Shown here piece by piece: positions 29,067 to 38,528 of a DNA stretch of 64,000 bases. Origin of the DNA: Escherichia phage momo; the sequence record MN850580.1, one strand, 5' to 3'. The stretch's first letter is position 1. The number at the start of each line of letters is the position of its first letter. The notes below the pieces were generated by a model that saw only the letters and a program-made list of their open reading frames with translations, was not told the DNA's origin and did no database searches. Both the position numbers and the translations under genes were made by a program.

Positions 29067-29142
29067 TGGAGAATCCGAAGGGACTCGAACCCTTATAAAC
29101 CTGTTTTGCAGACAGGCACATATCCATTTCTGTCACGGATTC
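29067..29142 (-). tRNA. tRNA-Cys (anticodon GCA)
   Basis: Hand-folded: acceptor GAAUCCG/CGGAUUC, anticodon loop CUGCAAA, T-loop UUCGAGU, CCA encoded. Confidence 0.7.
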
Positions 29143-29146
29143 AAAT

Positions 29147-29239
29147 TGGAGGAAGATACCAGACTTGAACTGGTACACCGATTTCTCAGCTACTGGCAGT
29201 TTAGCAAACTGCTCCCTTACCTTTTAGGGTTAATCTTCC
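29147..29239 (-). tRNA. tRNA-Ser (anticodon GCU), class II
   Basis: Anticodon stem GCAGU/ACUGC, loop UUGCUAA, long variable arm, T-arm ACCAG/CUGGU. Confidence 0.65.
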
Positions 29240-29240
29240 A

Positions 29241-29975
29241 TTATTTCTGTAATGCGCTCTTCATTTCTGGTGTTGCAATAGTGTCAATCACACCAGTTTT
29301 ACAAGCATCGTCAAACCAGTCTGGTAAGATACCTGCTAAGAACCCATTGATATTCGTTTTAAGGTACTCTGCAATAAGGGCAGCTTCTTCTTCAATCATC
29401 TGCACAACTTCATCTGCATAAGCTGTAATCTTTGAAATACCTTCATTAATCTTACTGACAGCTTGGTTAGCTAAATCAGAAACAGTATCAAGACCCTTAT
29501 CAATAGCATCTTGTAAGTCACTTAACACACCATTAACACTATCTAGTGTACTGTTCATCATGTCAATAGCTTTTTGACCATACTCTGTAGCAACACCCAT
29601 GATACCACTGAATGGTGTACAACCAACTTGTTCTCCTGCTGCACCCATAACATTGGAATACCCCTTTGCTACCTGCATACGTGATGAAAACTCATCAATA
29701 GATTTTTGACCGTAGTCTGTCAGAGTTTTAGTAGTTGCTGTAGTGCTTGTAAGGCTTGTTGTAAAGCTGTTTAGAAGGACTGTTGTAAGTCCAGCAGCAA
29801 CAAGTTTCTCCTTCATTGTAGGGTCTGTTACAGAACTAATAGAGCTTACAAGTGATGTAGAAGCAGCTACGGTTCCACCGAGAACTGCTGCACCAGTAAT
29901 AAGCGGGTTAGAGAACCCTTTACCAGTTTTTAAGAGATTAAAAATCTCCTTACCTTGTTCTGTCATCTCTTTCAT
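29241..29975 (-). CDS. hypothetical protein embedded in tRNA array
   Basis: Track ORF 29241..30038 uses GTG that overlaps tRNA-Phe; internal ATG at 29975 has AAGGTG RBS. Confidence 0.5.
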   Translation of the reverse strand: MKEMTEQGKEIFNLLKTGKGFSNPLITGAAVLGGTVAASTSLVSSISSVTDPTMKEKLVAAGLTTVLLNSFTTSLTSTTATTKTLTDYGQKSIDEFSSRMQVAKGYSNVMGAAGEQVGCTPFSGIMGVATEYGQKAIDMMNSTLDSVNGVLSDLQDAIDKGLDTVSDLANQAVSKINEGISKITAYADEVVQMIEEEAALIAEYLKTNINGFLAGILPDWFDDACKTGVIDTIATPEMKSALQK

Positions 29976-29991
29976 TAAGCACCTTTGAAAT

Positions 29992-30068
29992 TGGTAGTCC
30001 AGTGGGATTTGAACCCTCTTCTCATGTTTTTCAGACACGCGCTTTAACCATATAAGCTACTTGGACTA
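29992..30068 (-). tRNA. tRNA-Phe (anticodon GAA)
   Basis: Acceptor UAGUCCA/UGGACUA, anticodon stem CGUGU/ACAUG, loop CUGAAAA. Confidence 0.6.
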
Positions 30069-30073
30069 TAAAT

Positions 30074-30149
30074 TGGGGTGACCTACGGGATTTGAACCCG
30101 TATAGACCATGTTCACAGCATGGGTCATTACCGTTTATGATAAGGCCAC
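30074..30149 (-). tRNA. tRNA-His (anticodon GUG)
   Basis: Anticodon stem CCAUG/CAUGG, loop CUGUGAA, T-arm ACGGG/CCCGU. Confidence 0.7.
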
Positions 30150-30180
30150 ATTTAAGGACTCTCGCAAGAATCCTTAGAAG

Positions 30181-30256
30181 TGGCAGCGGCATAAGGATTT
30201 GAACCTTAATAGGACAGCTTCAGAGGCTGCTGCATTGCCAGTTATGCTATACCGCT
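30181..30256 (-). tRNA. tRNA-Gln (anticodon CUG)
   Basis: Acceptor AGCGGUA/UGCCGCU, D-stem GCAU/AUGC, anticodon loop CUCUGAA. Confidence 0.65.
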
Positions 30257-30261
30257 AAATT

Positions 30262-30340
30262 TGGTACTCCATATCGGATTCGAACCGATACATAACACAG
30301 ATTTTAAGTCTGGCCTCTCTGCCAATTGGAGTAATGGAGC
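30262..30340 (-). tRNA. tRNA with leucine anticodon UAA, class-I length (short variable loop)
   Basis: Acceptor GCUCCAU/AUGGAGU, T-arm AUCGG/CCGAU, anticodon loop CUUAAAA, 7-nt variable loop. Confidence 0.5.
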
Positions 30341-30341
30341 A

Positions 30342-30417
30342 TTGGCGGGGGATGTTGGAATTGAACCAACTTCTTCGATTTCAAAGACCGAGGTTTTAAC
30401 CTTGTAAACTAATCCCC
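30342..30417 (-). tRNA. tRNA-Gln (anticodon UUG)
   Basis: Anticodon stem UCGGU/AUCGA, loop CUUUGAA, T-arm GUUGG/CCAAC. Confidence 0.55.
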
Positions 30418-30426
30418 TTTAAATCT

Positions 30427-30984
30427 TTACTTTCTCAGTGGATGAATAAAGAATGCCAACATAACTCTTTCCCTTGAGAATGCTCTTTCTTCTGGGACAA
30501 CACTTTTTAGTTTCCATCCAACATAAATTCTCCAGTAAAACTGTTTACCAAAGATTTTAATTGACGGAATAAAAGCGAATAATCCCCAAGCATTGTTGTT
30601 CCACATTAGGAGATAACCTGTCTGATTATCTTCAGGGTCAGAACTTACGTTGATATTACCTTTCCACTTAGTAACATCTTTTACATCTCTTCCTAATACA
30701 TGGTAAGAGAAGTTATAAGCTTTGTTTCTCCAGAGCCATCCAACTCTCTGCATATAAACACCGAGCTTGCCAATCTTTCTAATCTTAGCCCATCTTTTAA
30801 TGTGACCTTCATCACCATCAATAGGGTTGTCATATGTCTCCATCCATCTGAATCCAAAAGGTAGATGCCCTTTCTTCTCACTATAGAATGGAACTACAAA
30901 AGGTGCTAAGATAACTGCTAAGGTTGCTGCCAATGGGTCTAACAAAGCTAGGAAAATCCATGAAGCATACTTCAAATATCTCAT
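30427..30984 (-). CDS. membrane protein embedded in tRNA array
   Basis: 185 aa, N-terminal hydrophobic segments (IFLALLDPLAATLAVILAPFVVPF). Confidence 0.5.
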   Translation of the reverse strand: MRYLKYASWIFLALLDPLAATLAVILAPFVVPFYSEKKGHLPFGFRWMETYDNPIDGDEGHIKRWAKIRKIGKLGVYMQRVGWLWRNKAYNFSYHVLGRDVKDVTKWKGNINVSSDPEDNQTGYLLMWNNNAWGLFAFIPSIKIFGKQFYWRIYVGWKLKSVVPEERAFSRERVMLAFFIHPLRK

Positions 30985-31003
30985 TTAAATAGCCTCTTTA
31001 AAT

Positions 31004-31079
31004 TGGCGCAGGATAAGGGATTCGAACCCCTATTAACAGCTTCGTAGACTGCTGCTCTATCCATTTGAACTAATCCTGC
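31004..31079 (-). tRNA. tRNA-Arg (anticodon ACG)
   Basis: Acceptor GCAGGAU/AUCCUGC, anticodon loop CUACGAA, T-loop UUCGAAU. Confidence 0.65.
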
Positions 31080-31084
31080 AAAAT

Positions 31085-31162
31085 TGGTGTTCCAAGACGG
31101 ATTCGAACCGTCACTAGTACAAGGTTTGAGCTTGCATCCTCTGCCAATTGGGATATTGGAAC
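31085..31162 (-). tRNA. tRNA with leucine anticodon CAA, class-I length
   Basis: Acceptor GUUCCAA/UUGGAAC, anticodon stem GCAAG/CUUGU, loop CUCAAAC, 6-nt variable loop. Confidence 0.5.
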
Positions 31163-31163
31163 A

Positions 31164-31238
31164 TGGTACTCACTAAAGGACTTGAACCTTTTTCTTCATC
31201 TTGTAAGGGTGATGTTTTACCATATAAACTAAGCGAGT
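31164..31238 (-). tRNA. tRNA-Val (anticodon UAC)
   Basis: Acceptor ACUCGCU/AGUGAGU, anticodon loop CUUACAA (one stem mismatch). Confidence 0.5.
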
Positions 31239-31242
31239 ATGA

Positions 31243-31328
31243 AAGAGGTCTGAAGTTGTGCCGCTAACTCAACTCCGTGGAATTTGTTACGGTCTTCAGT
31301 TGACACCAGCGGTCTTTCACTTGACCTC
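31243..31328. ncRNA. unassigned structured element in tRNA array (tRNA-like ends, no canonical T-loop)
   Basis: 7-nt terminal complementarity agaggtc/gacctct enclosing internal inverted repeats (ctgaag/cttcag, ccgt/acgg); no clean cloverleaf. Confidence 0.25.
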
Positions 31329-31333
31329 TGAAT

Positions 31334-31409
31334 TGGTGCTCCCACAAGGATTCGAACCCTGATAAGTTGCTTACAAGGCAACCGTAATAGCCAATTATAC
31401 GATAGGAGC
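31334..31409 (-). tRNA. tRNA-Thr (anticodon UGU)
   Basis: Acceptor GCUCCUA/UGGGAGC, anticodon stem GUUGC/GCAAC, loop CUUGUAA. Confidence 0.7.
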
Positions 31410-31416
31410 ATTAATT

Positions 31417-31491
31417 TGGAGCATCCAGAGGGAATCGAACCCTCAACCTCAGTTTGGAAGACTGTAATTTTCCCGTTTAAACTATGGATGC
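31417..31491 (-). tRNA. tRNA-Gly (anticodon UCC)
   Basis: Acceptor GCAUCCA/UGGAUGC, anticodon loop CUUCCAA, T-arm GAGGG/CCCUC. Confidence 0.65.
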
Positions 31492-31497
31492 ACTAAT

Positions 31498-31573
31498 TGG
31501 TGGAGTCACTGAGAATTGAACTCAGTTCCCAAGTTTGCAAAACTCGAATTTTAACCATATAAACTATGACCCC
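31498..31573 (-). tRNA. tRNA-Ala (anticodon UGC)
   Basis: Acceptor GGGGUCA/UGACUCC with G3-U70, anticodon loop UUUGCAA. Confidence 0.65.
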
Positions 31574-31579
31574 ATTGTT

Positions 31580-31655
31580 TGGTACAGGTGGAGGGAATTG
31601 AACCCATCGTCTTACTGATTAAGAGTCAGCCGCATAACCATTTTGCTACACCTGC
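31580..31655 (-). tRNA. tRNA-Lys (anticodon CUU)
   Basis: Acceptor GCAGGUG/CACCUGU, anticodon stem GCUGA/UCAGU, loop CUCUUAA; T-stem has two non-canonical pairs. Confidence 0.55.
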
Positions 31656-31662
31656 ATTAATT

Positions 31663-31740
31663 TGGTAGGAGACAAGGGATTCGAACCCTCAAACATCTCG
31701 TTCTAAGCGAGATAGGTTTACCAATTACCGTCAATCTCCC
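31663..31740 (-). tRNA. tRNA with leucine anticodon UAG, class-I length
   Basis: Clean fold: acceptor GGGAGAU/GUCUCCU, anticodon stem UCUCG/CGAGA, loop CUUAGAA, 5-nt variable loop. Confidence 0.55.
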
Positions 31741-31998
31741 ATTAAATCTTTTTAGAGAACTTCTAAGAACCTAAGCAACAAGGTTCCACAACAAGCTGTA
31801 ATAACCTTAGAAGCCCTCTAAAAAGACCTAAAAAGGTCTTTGCATAGTCTTGTTTAATCCGGTGACTAGAACCTTTGGAGAGCTTGATATTATCTCTTCT
31901 CCGTGACACCTACTAGGTGCTTTACTGTGCGTGTACGACAATACACTAGGGATACCAAAGCAACATCCGAATGAAGCTTGGCTTTAAATCTTATTAGG

Positions 31999-32086
31999 CG
32001 GTAAGTAAAGGAGTCGAACCCTCACCGTATCTCTACAGTGGCAACTGTTTTCAAGACAGTTTGGCTACCATTAGCCGCTACCTACC
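31999..32086 (-). tRNA. tRNA-Ser (anticodon UGA), class II
   Basis: Acceptor GGUAGGU/ACUUACC, anticodon stem ACUGU/ACAGU, loop CUUGAAA, about 20-nt variable arm. Confidence 0.6.
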
Positions 32087-32098
32087 CCTAATAAGACT

Positions 32099-32181
32099 TT
32101 GGCATGGGACGGAGGAGTTGAACCACTTTGAAACGGTTTTGGAGGCCGTTGCTCATGCCTTAGAGTCTTAACATCGTCCCA
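32099..32181 (-). tRNA. tRNA candidate, possibly Trp (anticodon CCA), atypical D region
   Basis: Acceptor GUGGGAC/GUCCCAU, CCA encoded, loop CUCCAAA resembling tRNA-Trp; D region about 7 nt longer than usual. Confidence 0.35.
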
Positions 32182-32325
32182 CACTATAATTCGAAGCTTA
32201 CCGTATTTTCACAACACTGTAAAGCCCCTTCTCAGATTATTTACATGTTCTGGAAAACATGAGATACAGACCACCTCCTTACACGGAGACCCGATAAGGT
32301 CGTCTAAGTAATCTGCTAACTAAAT

Positions 32326-32404
32326 TGGTCGAGGCGGCAGGACTCGAACCCGCATACTCCACTTACTCGGTTAACGGCGGTTTAGAAGACCGCTGAGATA
32401 CGCC
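32326..32404 (-). tRNA. tRNA candidate, possibly Arg (anticodon UCU), atypical
   Basis: Acceptor CGGGGCG/CGCCUCG, T-arm GCGGG/CCUGC, hairpin GCGGU-CUUCUAA-ACCGC, but D-arm not resolvable. Confidence 0.35.
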
Positions 32405-32655
32405 CCGTAATTATCTTTAAAGACTCTCTTAGAAAGCCCTTAAAGATGCCCACCTTATTAATCATACCGTGGGCTAGTACGCCAAATTCTTTGATGAGGG
32501 ATTGGAAGACCTCACTGGTGTTTAGCCTATCAAGCTACTGCCAGAAAAACATTGTCGTTTGCATTTATTTTAAATTTGCAAAATAGACGCTACGCAACGA
32601 AAACTAAGGTTACTATAAAGTAGTCGCATCTCAATGTCAACAACTTTATTGAAAT

Positions 32656-32731
32656 TGGTACTGGTAGGTGGAATCGAACCACCGATGTTCCCTTATCAGG
32701 GGAGTGTTATAACCTTCTTAACTATACCAGC
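32656..32731 (-). tRNA. tRNA-Ile (anticodon GAU)
   Basis: Acceptor GCUGGUA/UACCAGU, D-stem GUUA/UAAC, anticodon loop CUGAUAA. Confidence 0.65.
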
Positions 32732-32732
32732 T

Positions 32733-32809
32733 TGGAGGTTCAGATGGGAATCGAACCCACATTCATAGGGCTTATGAGACCCTTGCATTACCTTATCTGC
32801 GACTGAACC
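32733..32809 (-). tRNA. tRNA-Met type (anticodon CAU)
   Basis: Acceptor GGUUCAG/CUGAACC, anticodon stem AGGGU/GCCCU, loop CUCAUAA. Confidence 0.6.
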
Positions 32810-32813
32810 ATAT

Positions 32814-32889
32814 TGGTAGAAGTGGAGGGATTCGAACCCATCGCCTGTCAGATTAAAAGTCTGCCGCATCACCATTCTGCTACACTTCC
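32814..32889 (-). tRNA. tRNA-Lys (anticodon UUU)
   Basis: Acceptor GGAAGUG/CACUUCU, anticodon loop CUUUUAA; same T-stem irregularity as tRNA-Lys(CUU). Confidence 0.55.
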
Positions 32890-32896
32890 ATTAAAT

Positions 32897-33035
32897 TATC
32901 TTTGTAGATAAGCTACCCAGACTTGCTTAAGGTCTGTAGCGATGTGACTTTTTGGGTTTAAATCTAGAATTTACCCTTTCACCCTTTGTGGTCGCATACT
33001 CACAGGTAAGCTTAATAACTTATCTACAAAGATAA
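32897..33035. repeat. 17-bp perfect inverted repeat bracketing about 105 bp of non-coding sequence
   Basis: ttatctttgtagataag at 32897-32913 and reverse complement cttatctacaaagataa at 33019-33035. Confidence 0.6.
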
Positions 33036-33320
33036 TTACCAGACCGTTGTTTATCATCTTAAGTGCTACCATTACACCAACTCGACCTCTGCCGAGTGAA
33101 GGAATCGAACCTTCGCCTTTTCTTTACCGAGAAATAGATTGTTTAAGTTTTGCTGTAAACGGTCTTCTGTAAATTTGTTGAGCCAGACCAAGTTTTAAAT
33201 TTTTTCAAAATTGAATTGGCTTGAAAATATCATACATTCTTGCTGTATTTGGTCTTCTACTCCTTTAAAGAATACTCGTAAGAACTCTTTAAGGGAGGGG
33301 CTAAATAGCCCTCTCAAAAT

Positions 33321-33398
33321 TGGCGGTTACGAAGGGATTTGAACCCTCATCATCTCCCGTGACAGGGGAGTATTTTAACCAAATTAAACTACATAACC
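33321..33398 (-). tRNA. tRNA-Asp (anticodon GUC)
   Basis: Acceptor GGUUAUG/CGUAACC, anticodon stem CUCCC/GGGAG, loop CUGUCAC. Confidence 0.7.
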
Positions 33399-33403
33399 TT
33401 TAT

Positions 33404-33491
33404 TGGTGTGCCGTGTAGGAGTCGAACCTACCGAGTCTCAATGACAAGGGATTTACAGTCCCCACCGCTACCATCTACGGGATAACGACAC
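33404..33491 (-). tRNA. tRNA-Tyr (anticodon GUA), class II
   Basis: Acceptor GUGUCGU/ACGGCAC, anticodon stem GGGGA/UCCCU, loop CUGUAAA, long variable arm. Confidence 0.65.
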
Positions 33492-33499
33492 ATTTAATT

Positions 33500-33576
33500 T
33501 GGCGGTTAGTCAGGGATTCGAACCCTGTGCCATTCGCTTAACAGGCGACCGCACATACCTTATGTGCTTCCTAACC
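33500..33576 (-). tRNA. tRNA-Asn (anticodon GUU)
   Basis: D-stem GCAC/GUGC, anticodon loop CUGUUAA, T-arm CAGGG/CCCUG. Confidence 0.65.
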
Positions 33577-33654
33577 TTAATACATTGCCAGACCGTGTTT
33601 TTTCTTTTATCCGCAAAAAAGTATTTTGTTGCTGAATACGGTCTTCTGCAAAAT

Positions 33655-33731
33655 TGGAGGCGGGTGCAGGAGTCGAACCTGCCGATACCATGCTAATGAG
33701 ACATGTGAGACGCCCTTTCTCTATACCCGCA
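33655..33731 (-). tRNA. tRNA-Met type (anticodon CAU), second copy
   Basis: T-arm GCAGG/CCUGC, anticodon stem CAUGU/GCAUG, loop CUCAUUA (U at 37 unusual). Confidence 0.5.
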
Positions 33732-33822
33732 ATTCTTAATGACCAGACCAAATCTCTTCTTTGTCCGATTTACCTTCAGATGAATAAGATTAAGTTTGCT
33801 GTAATTGGTCTTCTGTCAAAAC

Positions 33823-33900
33823 TGGCGTTCCAGAAGGGATTTGAACCCTCAGATATCCACTTTGAAAGAGTGGTGACTATACCATTTTGTCTACTGGAAC
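33823..33900 (-). tRNA. tRNA-Glu (anticodon UUC)
   Basis: Acceptor GUUCCAG/CUGGAAC, anticodon stem CCACU/AGUGG, loop CUUUCAA. Confidence 0.7.
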
Positions 33901-33907
33901 ATTAATT

Positions 33908-33984
33908 TGGTCTCTGTTGGAGGACTTGAACCTCCGGCCTTACCGCCCCAAACGGAACGCTCTACCAATCTGAGCTAAACAGAG
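33908..33984 (-). tRNA. tRNA-Pro (anticodon UGG)
   Basis: Acceptor CUCUGUU/AACAGAG, D-stem GCUC/GAGC, anticodon loop UUUGGGG, T-arm GGAGG/CCUCC. Confidence 0.7.
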
Positions 33985-34149: not shown

Positions 34150-35565
34150 TTACCAGATATAACGGTCAATCATTACTGCTTTGAGCATTACACTGATTGG
34201 GTCAAACTTCTCACCACCAAGCAGAGCTTTTAAAGTGGCTGGAGAGAACCCTGATACCATTGCTACACCGTTATCCTTAACAGATACTTCGCAAGTACCA
34301 TTACGGTTTGCTAAGTACCAGAATACCAGTTGTGGCATCTCATATCCAGCTTTTTTGTACTTACTCTGAATTGCTTCAAAGTTTGTACGACCGTTAGCTC
34401 CATCAACCTGATTGAACTCCATATCGGAGAAGATGATAAGCTTACTTGGCATATCTTTCTGAGTCAAGTTGTTTCTTTTACCTGTTTCAAGAATGCGGTC
34501 AAAAGCTGCTTGTAAGTTAGTTGAGCCATATTCAACGTGTCGCATCACCTGACGATGACGGTTTCGTAAATCACCACTCAGTTCGATGAAGTGAGGGTTT
34601 GTTGAATAAACCATTAACTCATTCTTAAAGCAACCTGTATTGCGTTCTGCTACATACAAGGCAAGTGATACACCAATATCCAGAGCAGTAATGGAGCCAA
34701 AATTCACCCAAGACATTGAACTTGATACATCAGACATACACAAGATGTTTTCACCTTCTGCCATCCAGTTTGGTAGTGCTTTCCACTGCTCATTAGCAAC
34801 ATCTGCATTACCATACTTGACAGATTTAATCACATCGTATGGGTAAACAGCACCAGCGTTAATCTTAGTCTCACCTTTTGATAAGGACTCGATGTAAGAT
34901 TTGTAACGCTCTCCATCTTTACGGTTAAACAGTTTTTGGTAACGTGCAGCAGCAAGTGAAGGAATCTTACTGTAGTCAATCTTACCAAACTCGTTAGCAG
35001 AGATTTTTTGCTCAACTGTATCAGATAGTGCAGACAACAGTGTGCGGTACTCTTTCTCACTCAAGTTGGCAAACTTGCAGAAACGTTTTACAAACTGCTT
35101 ATGACGTGGTTTGACTCGTGGTAACCACTTAGCTGCCAAACCTGCTGTTGCAGGGTCTAGTAATGCTGCTTCTAAATGCTTGAAGGCATCTGTCTCGAAA
35201 CGAGTACCCACGAAGATTTTGAAATCATCAAAGCGACCAAGCTCTGCAATCTTATCCATAATGCGAAGAACCTGTGTAGACTCTAGAACTTTATCTTCAA
35301 TCGCTTGAAGTAAAACAGTTCGGAAAGCTTTACGCTCACCCATACCTTCTCGTACATCTCGCATATGCAGTAAAATACGAACTGCAACATCAACATCCTC
35401 ATGCAAAGCTTTGTAGAACAAGTCTGGTAAGATTTCTACATTGCTACGGCTAGAACCAGCAGCTTTGTAAAAGTCCACAAGAGCAGACATTGATGAAGTA
35501 TGGTTTACAGCACCATTTTCAGTTCGACCTGCATGAAGGTGCACATGTTTAAATAATTCGCTCAT
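34150..35565 (-). CDS. vWA (MIDAS) domain protein with N-terminal helical domain
   Basis: MIDAS-like ILCMSDVSSSMSW around residue 277 with downstream hydrophobic strands (LIIFSDMEF); about 270-aa helical N-terminal domain. Confidence 0.55.
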   Translation of the reverse strand: MSELFKHVHLHAGRTENGAVNHTSSMSALVDFYKAAGSSRSNVEILPDLFYKALHEDVDVAVRILLHMRDVREGMGERKAFRTVLLQAIEDKVLESTQVLRIMDKIAELGRFDDFKIFVGTRFETDAFKHLEAALLDPATAGLAAKWLPRVKPRHKQFVKRFCKFANLSEKEYRTLLSALSDTVEQKISANEFGKIDYSKIPSLAAARYQKLFNRKDGERYKSYIESLSKGETKINAGAVYPYDVIKSVKYGNADVANEQWKALPNWMAEGENILCMSDVSSSMSWVNFGSITALDIGVSLALYVAERNTGCFKNELMVYSTNPHFIELSGDLRNRHRQVMRHVEYGSTNLQAAFDRILETGKRNNLTQKDMPSKLIIFSDMEFNQVDGANGRTNFEAIQSKYKKAGYEMPQLVFWYLANRNGTCEVSVKDNGVAMVSGFSPATLKALLGGEKFDPISVMLKAVMIDRYIW

Positions 35566-37275: not shown

Positions 37276-37647
37276 ATGAAAGCTAAGAGTGCAAAAGACT
37301 TTTATTGCTTCCTACAATCCTATATCAATTCCGTGCAAAATGGTGAAAGGTACAACCTTAATGATGTTATCCCAACACCTTTGACATGGAGACTCAGTAA
37401 GTGGCCTGAAGAAGATATTACACCAACAAGCGAACAGCGTACCTACAAACCTGAAATCAATATTCCAGATTCTGAGAATCTATTATATCCAATGTTCCAT
37501 ATTGTTGGTCTTGGAAGATTCCTTATGGATATCCAGTATGTAATTGGTAAAGGTTATAAGGTTAAAGGTATTGTTGTTGGTGATGTATCTCCGCATCACA
37601 AAGGTTATTTTAGACTAAACGCACATTTAGAGGCTAAAAAGAAATGA
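37276..37647 (+). CDS. hypothetical protein, paralog of N-terminal domain of next gene
   Basis: Shares about 100-aa N-terminal similarity with 37644..38528 product (GxRY, WPExDI, KPxxxxPxSxxLLY, FxMDxQY). Confidence 0.5.
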   Translation: MKAKSAKDFYCFLQSYINSVQNGERYNLNDVIPTPLTWRLSKWPEEDITPTSEQRTYKPEINIPDSENLLYPMFHIVGLGRFLMDIQYVIGKGYKVKGIVVGDVSPHHKGYFRLNAHLEAKKK

Positions 37648-38528
37648 TTAAAGCAAAGACTTACCCAGACTTCAAAGAGTTTGTGAAGGGTTTCATTGCA
37701 AATGTAAAGGCTGGTAAGAGATATGATTTTAGAACATATCAAGAGGCTATTTTACCACTTACCTATAGTTCATATTGGCCTGAAGCTGATATTGCAGAAG
37801 TTGAGAAGTTTGACTACAAACCAGACTACAAAGTTCCATTTAGTGACGAATTGCTTTACAGTGTTGGTGCACAGATGAGAACTGCTGATTTCTTCATGGA
37901 TTTGCAGTATGCAATCATCAATGGTAAAGATGTTGACACAATTTACTGTGAATGGTTGGCAAGAGTTAAGCCGTTCTCAATGTTGAATGCTAAGTTGAAG
38001 GATGCTATTAAGCCACCAGCAATTACTCAGCAACCGACAGGTCAAACAGTCAATGAGGGTGGCACACTTACTCTAAGCATTCTAGCAACTAACGCCACTG
38101 GATATCAGTGGAAGAAGGATGGTGAGGACATCCCTAGTGCCAATTCTGCAACTTACACAAAACAGTCAGTAGCACCTTCTGACGCTGGTTCATACACTTG
38201 TGTTGTATCTGGAGAGGGTGGAACAAGTGTTACTTCAGATGCAGCAACAGTTACTGTGAATGCACTTCCAGTAATCACTCAACAGCCAGCAAATCAAGAA
38301 ATCACTGAAGGTGAGACCTTAACGCTGAATGTTGTGGCTACTGGTGCAACAAGTTACCAGTGGAAGAAAGGTGAGGAAGACATCCTCGATGCAACTACTG
38401 CAACTTACACCAAAGAAGGTGCAACCACCGCTGATGCAGGAAGCTACACTTGTGTAGTGACTGGCGCAGGTGGCTCTGTAACATCTAACGCAGCAACAGT
38501 TACAGTTAATCCAGCAGGGGAGGCATAA
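37644..38528 (+). CDS. protein with two tandem Ig-like domains
   Basis: Two about 80-aa repeats ITQQP..EG.TLTL..ATGAT.YQWKK..Y...AGSYTCVV..TVTVN. Confidence 0.55.
   Translation: MIKAKTYPDFKEFVKGFIANVKAGKRYDFRTYQEAILPLTYSSYWPEADIAEVEKFDYKPDYKVPFSDELLYSVGAQMRTADFFMDLQYAIINGKDVDTIYCEWLARVKPFSMLNAKLKDAIKPPAITQQPTGQTVNEGGTLTLSILATNATGYQWKKDGEDIPSANSATYTKQSVAPSDAGSYTCVVSGEGGTSVTSDAATVTVNALPVITQQPANQEITEGETLTLNVVATGATSYQWKKGEEDILDATTATYTKEGATTADAGSYTCVVTGAGGSVTSNAATVTVNPAGEA

Follow-up and report, generated by a model that had tools for sequence, protein, structure and literature searches.

In PMC9976931 and in the introduction of PMC6614811, leucine identity in Escherichia coli is ascribed to A73, A14, the A15-U48 pair, G18G19, A20a and the contacts of the D loop with the T loop, with the anticodon left unread. 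By the same accounts, neither the sequence nor the fold of the long variable arm is correlated with leucylation, and armless variants are active if A73 and the elbow contacts are intact. Engineered, minimalist versions of E. coli tRNA-Leu, from Larkin et al. 2002 as described in PMC9976931, are armless yet leucylated, given that they have A73 and the tertiary contacts of the D and T loops. Naturally short tRNAs with leucine anticodons are encoded at positions 30262 to 31740 of a 64,000-nucleotide stretch of Escherichia phage momo (sequence record MN850580.1); this whole stretch is referred to below as the window. The three tRNAs are probably functional, type-I tRNA-Leu to which the host's leucyl-tRNA synthetase (LeuRS) would attach leucine, a reading to which a probability of about 0.8 is assigned, and the armless engineered tRNA-Leu is, by analogy, a mechanistic precedent for such charging. 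The engineered forms were made in the laboratory, and some are devoid of an anticodon arm as well; those of the phage occur in nature, are complete, and are conserved.

Type-I tRNA-Leu is also found in Streptomyces coelicolor, where a tRNA-Leu(CAA) with a 5-nt variable loop exists beside type-II tRNA-Leu, with a single LeuRS in one cytoplasm (PMC6614811). The comparison extends only so far, given that A73 is not an identity element in S. coelicolor and a special domain of its LeuRS (ScoLeuRS) is needed, whereas the phage tRNAs carry the E. coli set of elements and the host is E. coli or Salmonella. A Streptomyces phage tRNA-Leu is a weak match to the CAA tRNA of the window, with 75.7% identity. 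Animal mitochondrial tRNA-Leu(UUR) is of type I as well, with an identity that depends mainly on A73 and A14 (PMC9976931), but the LeuRS that serves it is a dedicated mitochondrial one, its structure is floppy and A/U-rich, and its evolutionary lineage is a different one.

The three phage genes lie on the minus strand and were called by ARAGORN and by the Rfam tRNA model, and each was aligned with an E. coli counterpart. The tRNA-Leu(UAA) gene at 30262-30340 encodes 76 nt plus CCA (79 in total; Rfam 47.5 bits; aligned with leuZ), the tRNA-Leu(CAA) gene at 31085-31162 encodes 75 nt plus CCA (78 in total; 47.0 bits; leuX), and the tRNA-Leu(UAG) gene at 31663-31740 encodes 75 nt plus CCA (78 in total; 44.5 bits; leuW). 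The matches to the Rfam model, RF00005, are full-length for all three, and the gathering score is 29. The anticodon loops assigned by ARAGORN, in agreement with the Rfam register, are CUUAAAA, CUCAAAC and CUUAGAA for the UAA, CAA and UAG tRNAs, each of 7 nt with U33, and each gene has A73 and an encoded CCA. The variable region (positions 44-48) is 7 nt in the UAA tRNA, 6 nt in the CAA tRNA and 5 nt in the UAG tRNA, and is free of any helix. None of the three has the long arm of type II, which exceeds 10 nt and includes a helix; they instead have the 7/5 cloverleaf and short loop of type I, with the loops of the CAA and UAA tRNAs slightly longer than the canonical 4-5 nt. The original prediction, made from the sequence alone, had placed three tRNAs with leucine anticodons UAA, CAA and UAG in this interval, with sizes of 75-79 nt, A73 and variable loops of 5-7 nt. 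The ARAGORN structures and the Rfam matches agree with it in each of these respects, including the exact anticodon loops, and the automated folding it proposed as a check returned the same anticodons and the same loop register, with no long variable arm. Its description of the UAG fold as the cleanest does not stand, as this tRNA has the lowest Rfam score of the three and a D stem that needs a bulge or a mismatch.

The three tRNAs differ in detail. The UAA tRNA begins with a G1.U72 wobble and has the variable region GUUAUGU; its D arm is of the leucine type, with a 3-bp stem, a C13.A22 mismatch and the loop A14 A15 U16 U17 G18 G19 C20 A20a. The CAA tRNA has G1-C72, the same type of D arm, and an A44 able to pair with U26. 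The UAG tRNA has G1.U72 and the variable region UGUUU, and a single nucleotide of its D stem is extra or bulged. This nucleotide (GACGGU...ACCU) is also kept in the homologues from Suspvirus SUSP1 and Pectobacterium phage Arno18. The wobble at the end of the acceptor stem, present in two of the three phage tRNAs, is also found in E. coli leuZ.

An alignment of 22 sequences was made from the short phage tRNA-Leu, E. coli K-12 leuZ, leuX and leuW, and the long-arm leucine tRNAs of phages T5 and Trina. The phage tRNAs align over their whole length with leuZ (UAA), leuX (CAA) and leuW (UAG), and the one systematic departure is the absence of 8-10 nt at the place of the arm. Invariant in all 22 sequences are G18, G19, A20a, U33, A35, U48, the T-loop nucleotides G53, U54, U55, C56 and A58, and A73; conservation is 90% or higher at U8, A14 and A15. 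The nucleotides for the U8-A14 and A15:U48 interactions are present in each of the three window tRNAs, where they would be expected to pair in three dimensions. The spacing of the D loop is that of tRNA-Leu, with G18G19 four nucleotides past position 13, followed by N20 and A20a, a 3-bp stem, and positions 13 and 22 unpaired. In the UAA and CAA tRNAs the D arm reads C13-AAUU-GG-CA-GA, similar to the GAAU(U/C)GGUAGA of E. coli, and the UAG tRNA has the same loop spacing with an irregular stem. All three have the T loop UUCGAAU, which supplies U54, U55, C56 and A58, and all three have an anticodon of the form that reads leucine codons (NAG or YAA, with A35). In this alignment, none of the elements that are reported to mark a tRNA as leucine-specific for E. 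coli LeuRS is missing from the three tRNAs.

The likeness to the host tRNAs includes the anticodons, A73, U8-A14, A15:U48, a 3-bp D stem with a mismatch of 13 and 22, and the T loop. The difference is in the variable region, which in leuZ, leuX and leuW has 13-15 nt and is helical, for a total length of 85-87 nt including CCA, compared to 5-7 unpaired nucleotides in the phage. The phage UAG tRNA differs further from leuW in having C32, A37 and the extra D-stem nucleotide, where leuW has U32 and G37, the latter the site of m1G37.

The locus is shared among relatives of the phage. The 5-kb tRNA region is 96-97% identical to that of many Felix-O1-like phages of E. coli and Salmonella, and 1.56 kb around the leucine genes has 100% identity with Escherichia phage LinBro (Felixounavirus, Ounavirinae). 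The window as a whole is that of a Felixounavirus close to identical with LinBro. All three genes are already annotated as tRNA-Leu in phage allfine, and synteny of the array extends to allfine, SUSP1, Arno18 and Erwinia Kolesnikvirus Fifi318. Short tRNA-Leu genes occupy syntenic places in SUSP1, Arno18 and Fifi318, with the anticodons UAA, AAG and CAA in the case of Fifi318. These homologues are 77-79 nt including CCA, whereas the serine and tyrosine tRNAs are long in each array. The comparison with annotated relatives that had been suggested for this locus thus yields short leucine genes, in synteny, across the Ounavirinae. The variable region is 5 nt in the homologues from Arno18 and Fifi318, as well as in those from phages BF23 and AhP_Mru1, which are discussed below. 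Of 272 matching phage records, 215 carry the UAA tRNA with 99% identity or more, while the flanking DNA is less tightly conserved (about 96-97% over 5 kb); this excess of identity over the surrounding 5 kb suggests purifying selection on the UAA gene.

Two alleles of the UAG tRNA are found among otherwise near-identical phages. The anticodon stem is UCUCG/CGAGA in the window, and CCAUC/GUUGG in SUSP1 (L002:3205-3282) and in about 90 other records that form an 89.7% identity group. Eight of the ten nucleotides of the stem differ between the alleles, with pairing kept at four of the five pairs. The SUSP1-type stem resembles that of BF23, CCGUC/GUCGG (L006:5997-6073). The pattern suggests that Felix-O1-like phages have undergone exchange with T5-like ones, or else that the anticodon stem is under diversifying selection.

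Conservation of the fold was assessed with 16 short leucine tRNAs from four Ounavirinae lineages (three named genera and Arno18, which is unclassified), from BF23, and from one phage each of Aeromonas and Rhodococcus. Compensatory changes occur at 18 of the 20 cloverleaf pairs, and standard pairs make up 94.6% of the cells in the cloverleaf structure. The covariation score is 0.915, compared to 0.249 for column shuffles and at most 0.15 when the partners are slid by 1-3 columns. The four cloverleaf helices are supported by this covariation, which was relied on in place of thermodynamic folding, given that the latter is weak evidence. These results also bear on whether the genes encode adaptors at all, as they could be decaying relics of tRNA genes, or could specify tRNA-like RNAs with another role, such as defence decoys or processing signals. 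The presence of degenerate tRNA-like elements elsewhere in the array (32329-32407 and 32106-32180) and of some imperfect pairs in each of the three tRNAs would fit such a view. It is nonetheless judged very unlikely, given the conservation across the sampled Ounavirinae lineages with compensatory changes, the near-identity of the UAA copy in more than 200 genomes, the intact anticodon loops, T loops and CCA ends, and the match of the anticodons to codons that the phage over-uses.

Charging of functional adaptors by the host enzyme could proceed as follows. The genes would be transcribed as members of the array on the minus strand, and the transcripts would mature with the CCA that the genes supply. 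As bacterial LeuRS would read neither the anticodon nor the extra arm, the arm would be dispensable in tRNA-Leu and could be lost without loss of identity. In a 2025 study of Mooglevirus Sf14, the isotype models of tRNAscan-SE put leucine first for the three homologues, with scores of 67.4, 49.1 and 60.2 bits (PMC12482277). The original prediction had left a choice between compact leucine tRNAs and a charging identity that differs from the anticodon, which would cause recoding. The first of these is favored by the identity elements, the alignment with the host tRNAs, the covariation and the Sf14 isotype scores, and the second is countered by a codon-position test and the lack of a synthetase, both described below.

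Several points weigh against leucylation by the host enzyme. E. coli LeuRS (EcLeuRS) failed to leucylate the type-I tRNA-Leu(CAA) from S. coelicolor, and is described as charging only type-II tRNA-Leu; its leucine-specific domain favors large variable loops, and in the crystal its C-terminal domain touches arm nucleotides 47f-47i (PMC6614811). Given this failure and these contacts, charging of the phage tRNAs could be inefficient. The competence for type-I tRNA was attributed to the leucine-specific domain of the Streptomyces enzyme (PMC6614811). The S. coelicolor tRNA may, on the other hand, simply lack the E. coli identity set, because A73 is no identity element there. For the UAG homologue of Sf14, the leucine isotype score is only 1.7 bits above that for Ile2 (PMC12482277). 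Also unfavorable are the folds themselves: the minimum-free-energy structure is a cloverleaf for the CAA and UAG tRNAs, but a slipped, non-cloverleaf structure for the UAA tRNA, which has a C27.U43 mismatch; the D stem of the UAG tRNA is bulged or mismatched; and the folding z-scores of the leucine tRNAs are only -1.4 to -1.6.

Some of the same observations could be taken to mean that the armless tRNAs are charged by another synthetase, such that UUA, UUG and CUA would be read partly or wholly as some other amino acid. The only points in favor of mischarging are that the tRNAs depart from the canonical type II, that EcLeuRS failed on a type-I tRNA-Leu of foreign origin, and that the leucine and Ile2 scores of the Sf14 UAG homologue nearly tie. 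Against it, A73 and all of the elbow elements of leucine identity are kept. The G3:U70 pair that specifies alanine is absent, and the anticodons do not suit the synthetases for isoleucine, methionine, valine or phenylalanine, which read the anticodon. The anticodons 5'-UAA, 5'-CAA and 5'-UAG read the codons UUA, UUG and CUA, none of which is a stop codon. The host leuZ, leuX and leuW tRNAs read these same codons as leucine, so any recoding would be ambiguous, and TTA, TTG and CTA make up 54% of the leucine codons in the phage open reading frames (ORFs).

A codon-position test was also applied, in which the phage NAMPT and thymidylate synthase were each compared to the best solved homologue, a small sample that limits how far the test can favor leucine. 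At the 25 aligned positions with TTA, TTG or CTA, the partner residue is leucine at 11 (44%) and isoleucine, leucine, valine, methionine or phenylalanine at 19 (76%), and at the 35 aligned positions with CTT, CTC or CTG the corresponding figures are 15 (43%) and 26 (74%). The residues aligned to the two sets of codons do not differ, and recoding was rejected on the basis of these near-equal shares of leucine and hydrophobic partners in a small sample; it is regarded as extremely improbable.

A phage-encoded LeuRS was considered as well. Among 17 of the window's larger ORFs, including all 10 of at least 400 amino acids, a Pfam scan identified tail fibre, tape measure, NAMPT, terminase, portal and capsid proteins, ThyA and others of this kind, and no aminoacyl-tRNA synthetase. 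A 788-aa ORF at 57154-59520 lacks any Pfam match, which argues against a class-I synthetase. No synthetase is annotated in the remaining ~23 kb of LinBro, which carries genes for replication and nucleotide metabolism. A LeuRS encoded by the phage was rejected on the combined basis of the Pfam scan of these 17 ORFs and the LinBro annotation.

The codon usage of the phage is consistent with leucine decoding. The leucine codons of 69 non-overlapping window ORFs divide into 29% TTA, 27% CTT, 14% CTG, 12.5% TTG, 12% CTA and 6% CTC. By general figures, which weaken the comparison to that extent, E. coli has CTG at about half of its leucine codons, with TTA and TTG near 13% apiece and CTA near 4%. 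E. coli serves UUA, UUG and CUA with minor tRNAs encoded by single-copy genes. The UAA tRNA would be expected to decode UUA and UUG, the CAA tRNA to decode UUG, and the UAG tRNA to decode CUA and CUG and possibly other CUN codons. The phage anticodons cover leucine codons that the A/T-rich phage over-uses relative to the host, which fits the usual role of phage tRNAs in codon supplementation. The best reading is that the compact tRNAs would supply A/T-rich leucine codons. In the Sf14 study the three leucine tRNAs were likewise found to be consistent with the model of codon supplementation (PMC12482277).

The leucine genes are part of an array on the minus strand (29067-33984) with 25 tRNAs called by ARAGORN and a few small ORFs between them. 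The window as a whole has these 25 tRNAs, all on the minus strand, and one further Rfam match. Three other members of the array are of the long-arm class and serve as internal comparators. The tRNA-Ser(GCU) gene at 29147-29239 (minus strand; 93 nt; ARAGORN) and the tRNA-Ser(UGA) gene at 31997-32086 (minus strand; 90 nt; ARAGORN and Rfam) both keep a long extra arm, and the tRNA-Tyr(GUA) gene at 33404-33491 (minus strand; 88 nt; ARAGORN) keeps an extra arm with a 3-bp stem. Bacterial tyrosyl-tRNA synthetase (TyrRS) uses the variable arm. The serine and tyrosine tRNAs of the array would keep their arms because seryl-tRNA synthetase (SerRS) and bacterial TyrRS depend on them, whereas in a genome under deletion pressure, with a LeuRS that is independent of the arm, the arm would be free to decay in tRNA-Leu only. 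No long-arm tRNA-Leu was found by ARAGORN or Rfam in the whole 64-kb window, and no tRNA of any kind in the ~23 kb of the LinBro genome that maps outside it, which bears out an earlier remark that the array has no canonical tRNA-Leu with a long arm.

Short tRNA-Leu is also found in phages outside this group. Phage BF23 (Tequintavirus), of a different family (Demerecviridae), has an armless tRNA-Leu(UAG) of 77 nt that adjoins a tRNA-Ala gene (L006:5997-6073). It has the same T arm as the UAG tRNA of the window, GAGGGTTCGAATCCCTT, and about 76% identity to it overall. At the equivalent locus beside tRNA-Ala, phage T5 has a tRNA-Leu(UAG) of 85 nt with a small extra arm of 2-3 bp (L005:11625-11709). 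The armed form in T5 and the armless form in BF23 at one locus suggest that the two forms interchange between close relatives. The T5-like Aeromonas phage AhP_Mru1 (Demerecviridae) has three leucine tRNAs of 77 nt, and its serine tRNAs are 85 and 90 nt. Rhodococcus phage Trina (L008:4990-6125) has a short tRNA-Leu(UAA) of 74 nt together with a tRNA-Leu(CAA) of 86 nt and a tRNA-Leu(UAG) of 83 nt, both long, and so the two architectures coexist in one array of an actinobacterial phage. The premise of the original prediction that phage tRNA-Leu belongs to class II applies to T5, with its 85 nt and small arm, but not in general, given the 77-nt armless tRNA of BF23 and the viral contigs described next.

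Viral contigs in IMG/VR were searched with a pattern for a D loop of the leucine type, an NAR anticodon and a T loop, in one scan with a short variable region only and in another with a variable region of any length. The counts are samples and apply to the matches listed only, with arm lengths determined by ARAGORN. In the class-neutral sample, 48 of 186 tRNA-Leu (26%) among the matches listed are short-armed. Again among the matches listed, the short-armed form makes up 32 of 82 tRNA-Leu (39%) in stretches with at least 10 tRNAs and 2 of 44 that are near-solitary, and short forms number 0 of 61 for tRNA-Ser and 2 of 26 for tRNA-Tyr. Proviral contigs probably inflate the long-arm count by way of host tRNA-Leu genes at integration sites, and for some loci the assignment to the any-length scan was inferred from the row count. 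Both scans together gave 156 unique short leucine tRNAs among the matches listed, with A73 in 150, U8 in 151 and A14A15 in 134, the same profile of A73, U8 and A14A15 as in 174 long-armed leucine tRNAs among the matches listed; G18G19, A20a and U48 are imposed on any matched tRNA by the pattern itself. The G1.U72 wobble is present in 60 of the 156 short leucine tRNAs among the matches listed. Compact tRNA-Leu is common in phage tRNA clusters and occurs in all of the Ounavirinae genera sampled.

The arm was lost either neutrally, through deletion bias and compaction, or as a liability. The liability would arise if a host defence system, or a nuclease induced by the phage, recognised or cut the arm of type-II tRNA-Leu, such that armless copies would maintain leucine decoding. 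This is an extension of the explanation by leucine charging and does not exclude it. Such a pressure would explain both the concentration of short leucine tRNAs in large arrays of virulent type (32 of 82, compared to 2 of 44 near-solitary genes, among the matches listed) and their recurrence in at least two unrelated lineages of coliphages. The variable loop or the anticodon loop is where VapC52 reportedly cleaves tRNAs, and phage tRNAs are proposed to evade anticodon nucleases through loop changes (PMC10264068; cited in PMC12482277). T5 tRNA-Tyr has an altered variable loop and resists retron-Eco7/PtuAB (PMC13096335), and so resembles the leucine tRNAs as a phage type-II tRNA with a variable region unlike that of the host, but in tRNA-Tyr the arm is altered and kept and the defence target has been demonstrated, whereas the phage tRNA-Leu has no arm left. 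The literature searched yielded no nuclease directed at the arm of tRNA-Leu, and the bacterial Schlafen that has been studied cuts the anticodon arms of type-I, not type-II, tRNAs. T-even infection cleaves host tRNA-Leu1, a point on which a literature search for the T4-induced cleavage gave nothing relevant. In addition, T5 and Rhodococcus phage Trina retain armed leucine tRNAs, and the neutral account suffices, given that the arm is dispensable for LeuRS only and leucine is exactly the isotype that loses it. Adaptive loss is therefore considered unlikely, if not negligibly so. As a counter to tRNA-targeting immunity it is nevertheless a testable idea, for which the current precedents concern only tRNA-Tyr arms and anticodon loops.

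The same tRNA sequences are annotated as tRNA-Leu in hundreds of GenBank records, and some records have them as tRNA-OTHER or leave them unannotated. A full-text search, with most subscription journals outside its scope, turned up no paper in which type-I tRNA-Leu is commented upon in phages. The three genes are type-I tRNA-Leu that were already annotated as genes, and it is their architecture in phages for which no description was found. If LeuRS charges these tRNAs, they would be a natural and conserved demonstration that the enterobacterial enzyme needs no type-II arm, which was previously apparent only from engineered minimal tRNAs. The assertion in PMC6614811 that type-II tRNA-Leu is the sole form charged by E. 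coli LeuRS, with which the phage tRNAs are in tension, would then be qualified. The loss of the arm in leucine tRNAs and its retention in serine and tyrosine tRNAs, both in this array and in the contig sample (48 of 186 for leucine versus 0 of 61 for serine, among the matches listed), is what the identity rules predict. The assumption that bacterial and phage tRNA-Leu is always of type II is corrected, and for annotation, calls of short phage tRNA-Leu are not to be taken as errors or as evidence of recoding. Compact leucine scaffolds may also be of use in tRNA engineering.

Two tRNA-like leftovers in the array were considered as sites of a hidden long-arm tRNA-Leu, and neither is a leucine tRNA. 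The first, at 32329-32407 on the minus strand, is a 26th tRNA-like gene that was missed by ARAGORN and has an Rfam score of 31.7 bits. It has an acceptor stem, a T arm, A73, CCA and the anticodon loop CUUCUAA (UCU, for the arginine codon AGA), but the place of the D arm is taken by only 4 nt, and an insertion of about 22 nt precedes the T arm. The element is identical in phage allfine. A canonical tRNA-Arg(UCU) is found in SUSP1, Arno18 and Fifi318, with the SUSP1 copy at the corresponding place in the array, and AGA accounts for 42% of the arginine codons of the phage. The element could be a degenerate gene or an unusual tRNA without a D arm. The second, at 32106-32180 on the minus strand, scores weakly against the Rfam model of tRNA-Sec (21.3 bits, E = 0.12), has the 9-nt loop CCUCCAAAA, and is probably a decayed tRNA gene. 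In the spacer beyond the arginine-like RNA, partial matches to tmRNA models at 32409-32598 (minus strand) score 15.4 bits, compared to a gathering score of 47, and are most likely spurious.

A scan for promoters and terminators gave 15 promoter-like sites, not above the chance expectation of 11.9 +/- 3.0, and no transcription unit is proposed from it. Directly upstream of the array, at 34150-35565 on the minus strand, is an ORF of 471 amino acids with DUF2828 and DUF7788 domains, annotated as an RNA-binding protein in SUSP1, which could have some bearing on the unusual tRNA-like RNAs close by. Two conserved ORFs lie within the array on the minus strand: a DUF7217 ORF at 29241-29975, annotated in allfine as a putative membrane protein, and a DUF7338 ORF at 30427-30984. 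Elsewhere in the window, and unrelated to the leucine tRNAs, an ORF with tandem immunoglobulin-like domains is located at 37644-38528 on the plus strand, and one with a macro domain at 51531-52316 on the minus strand.

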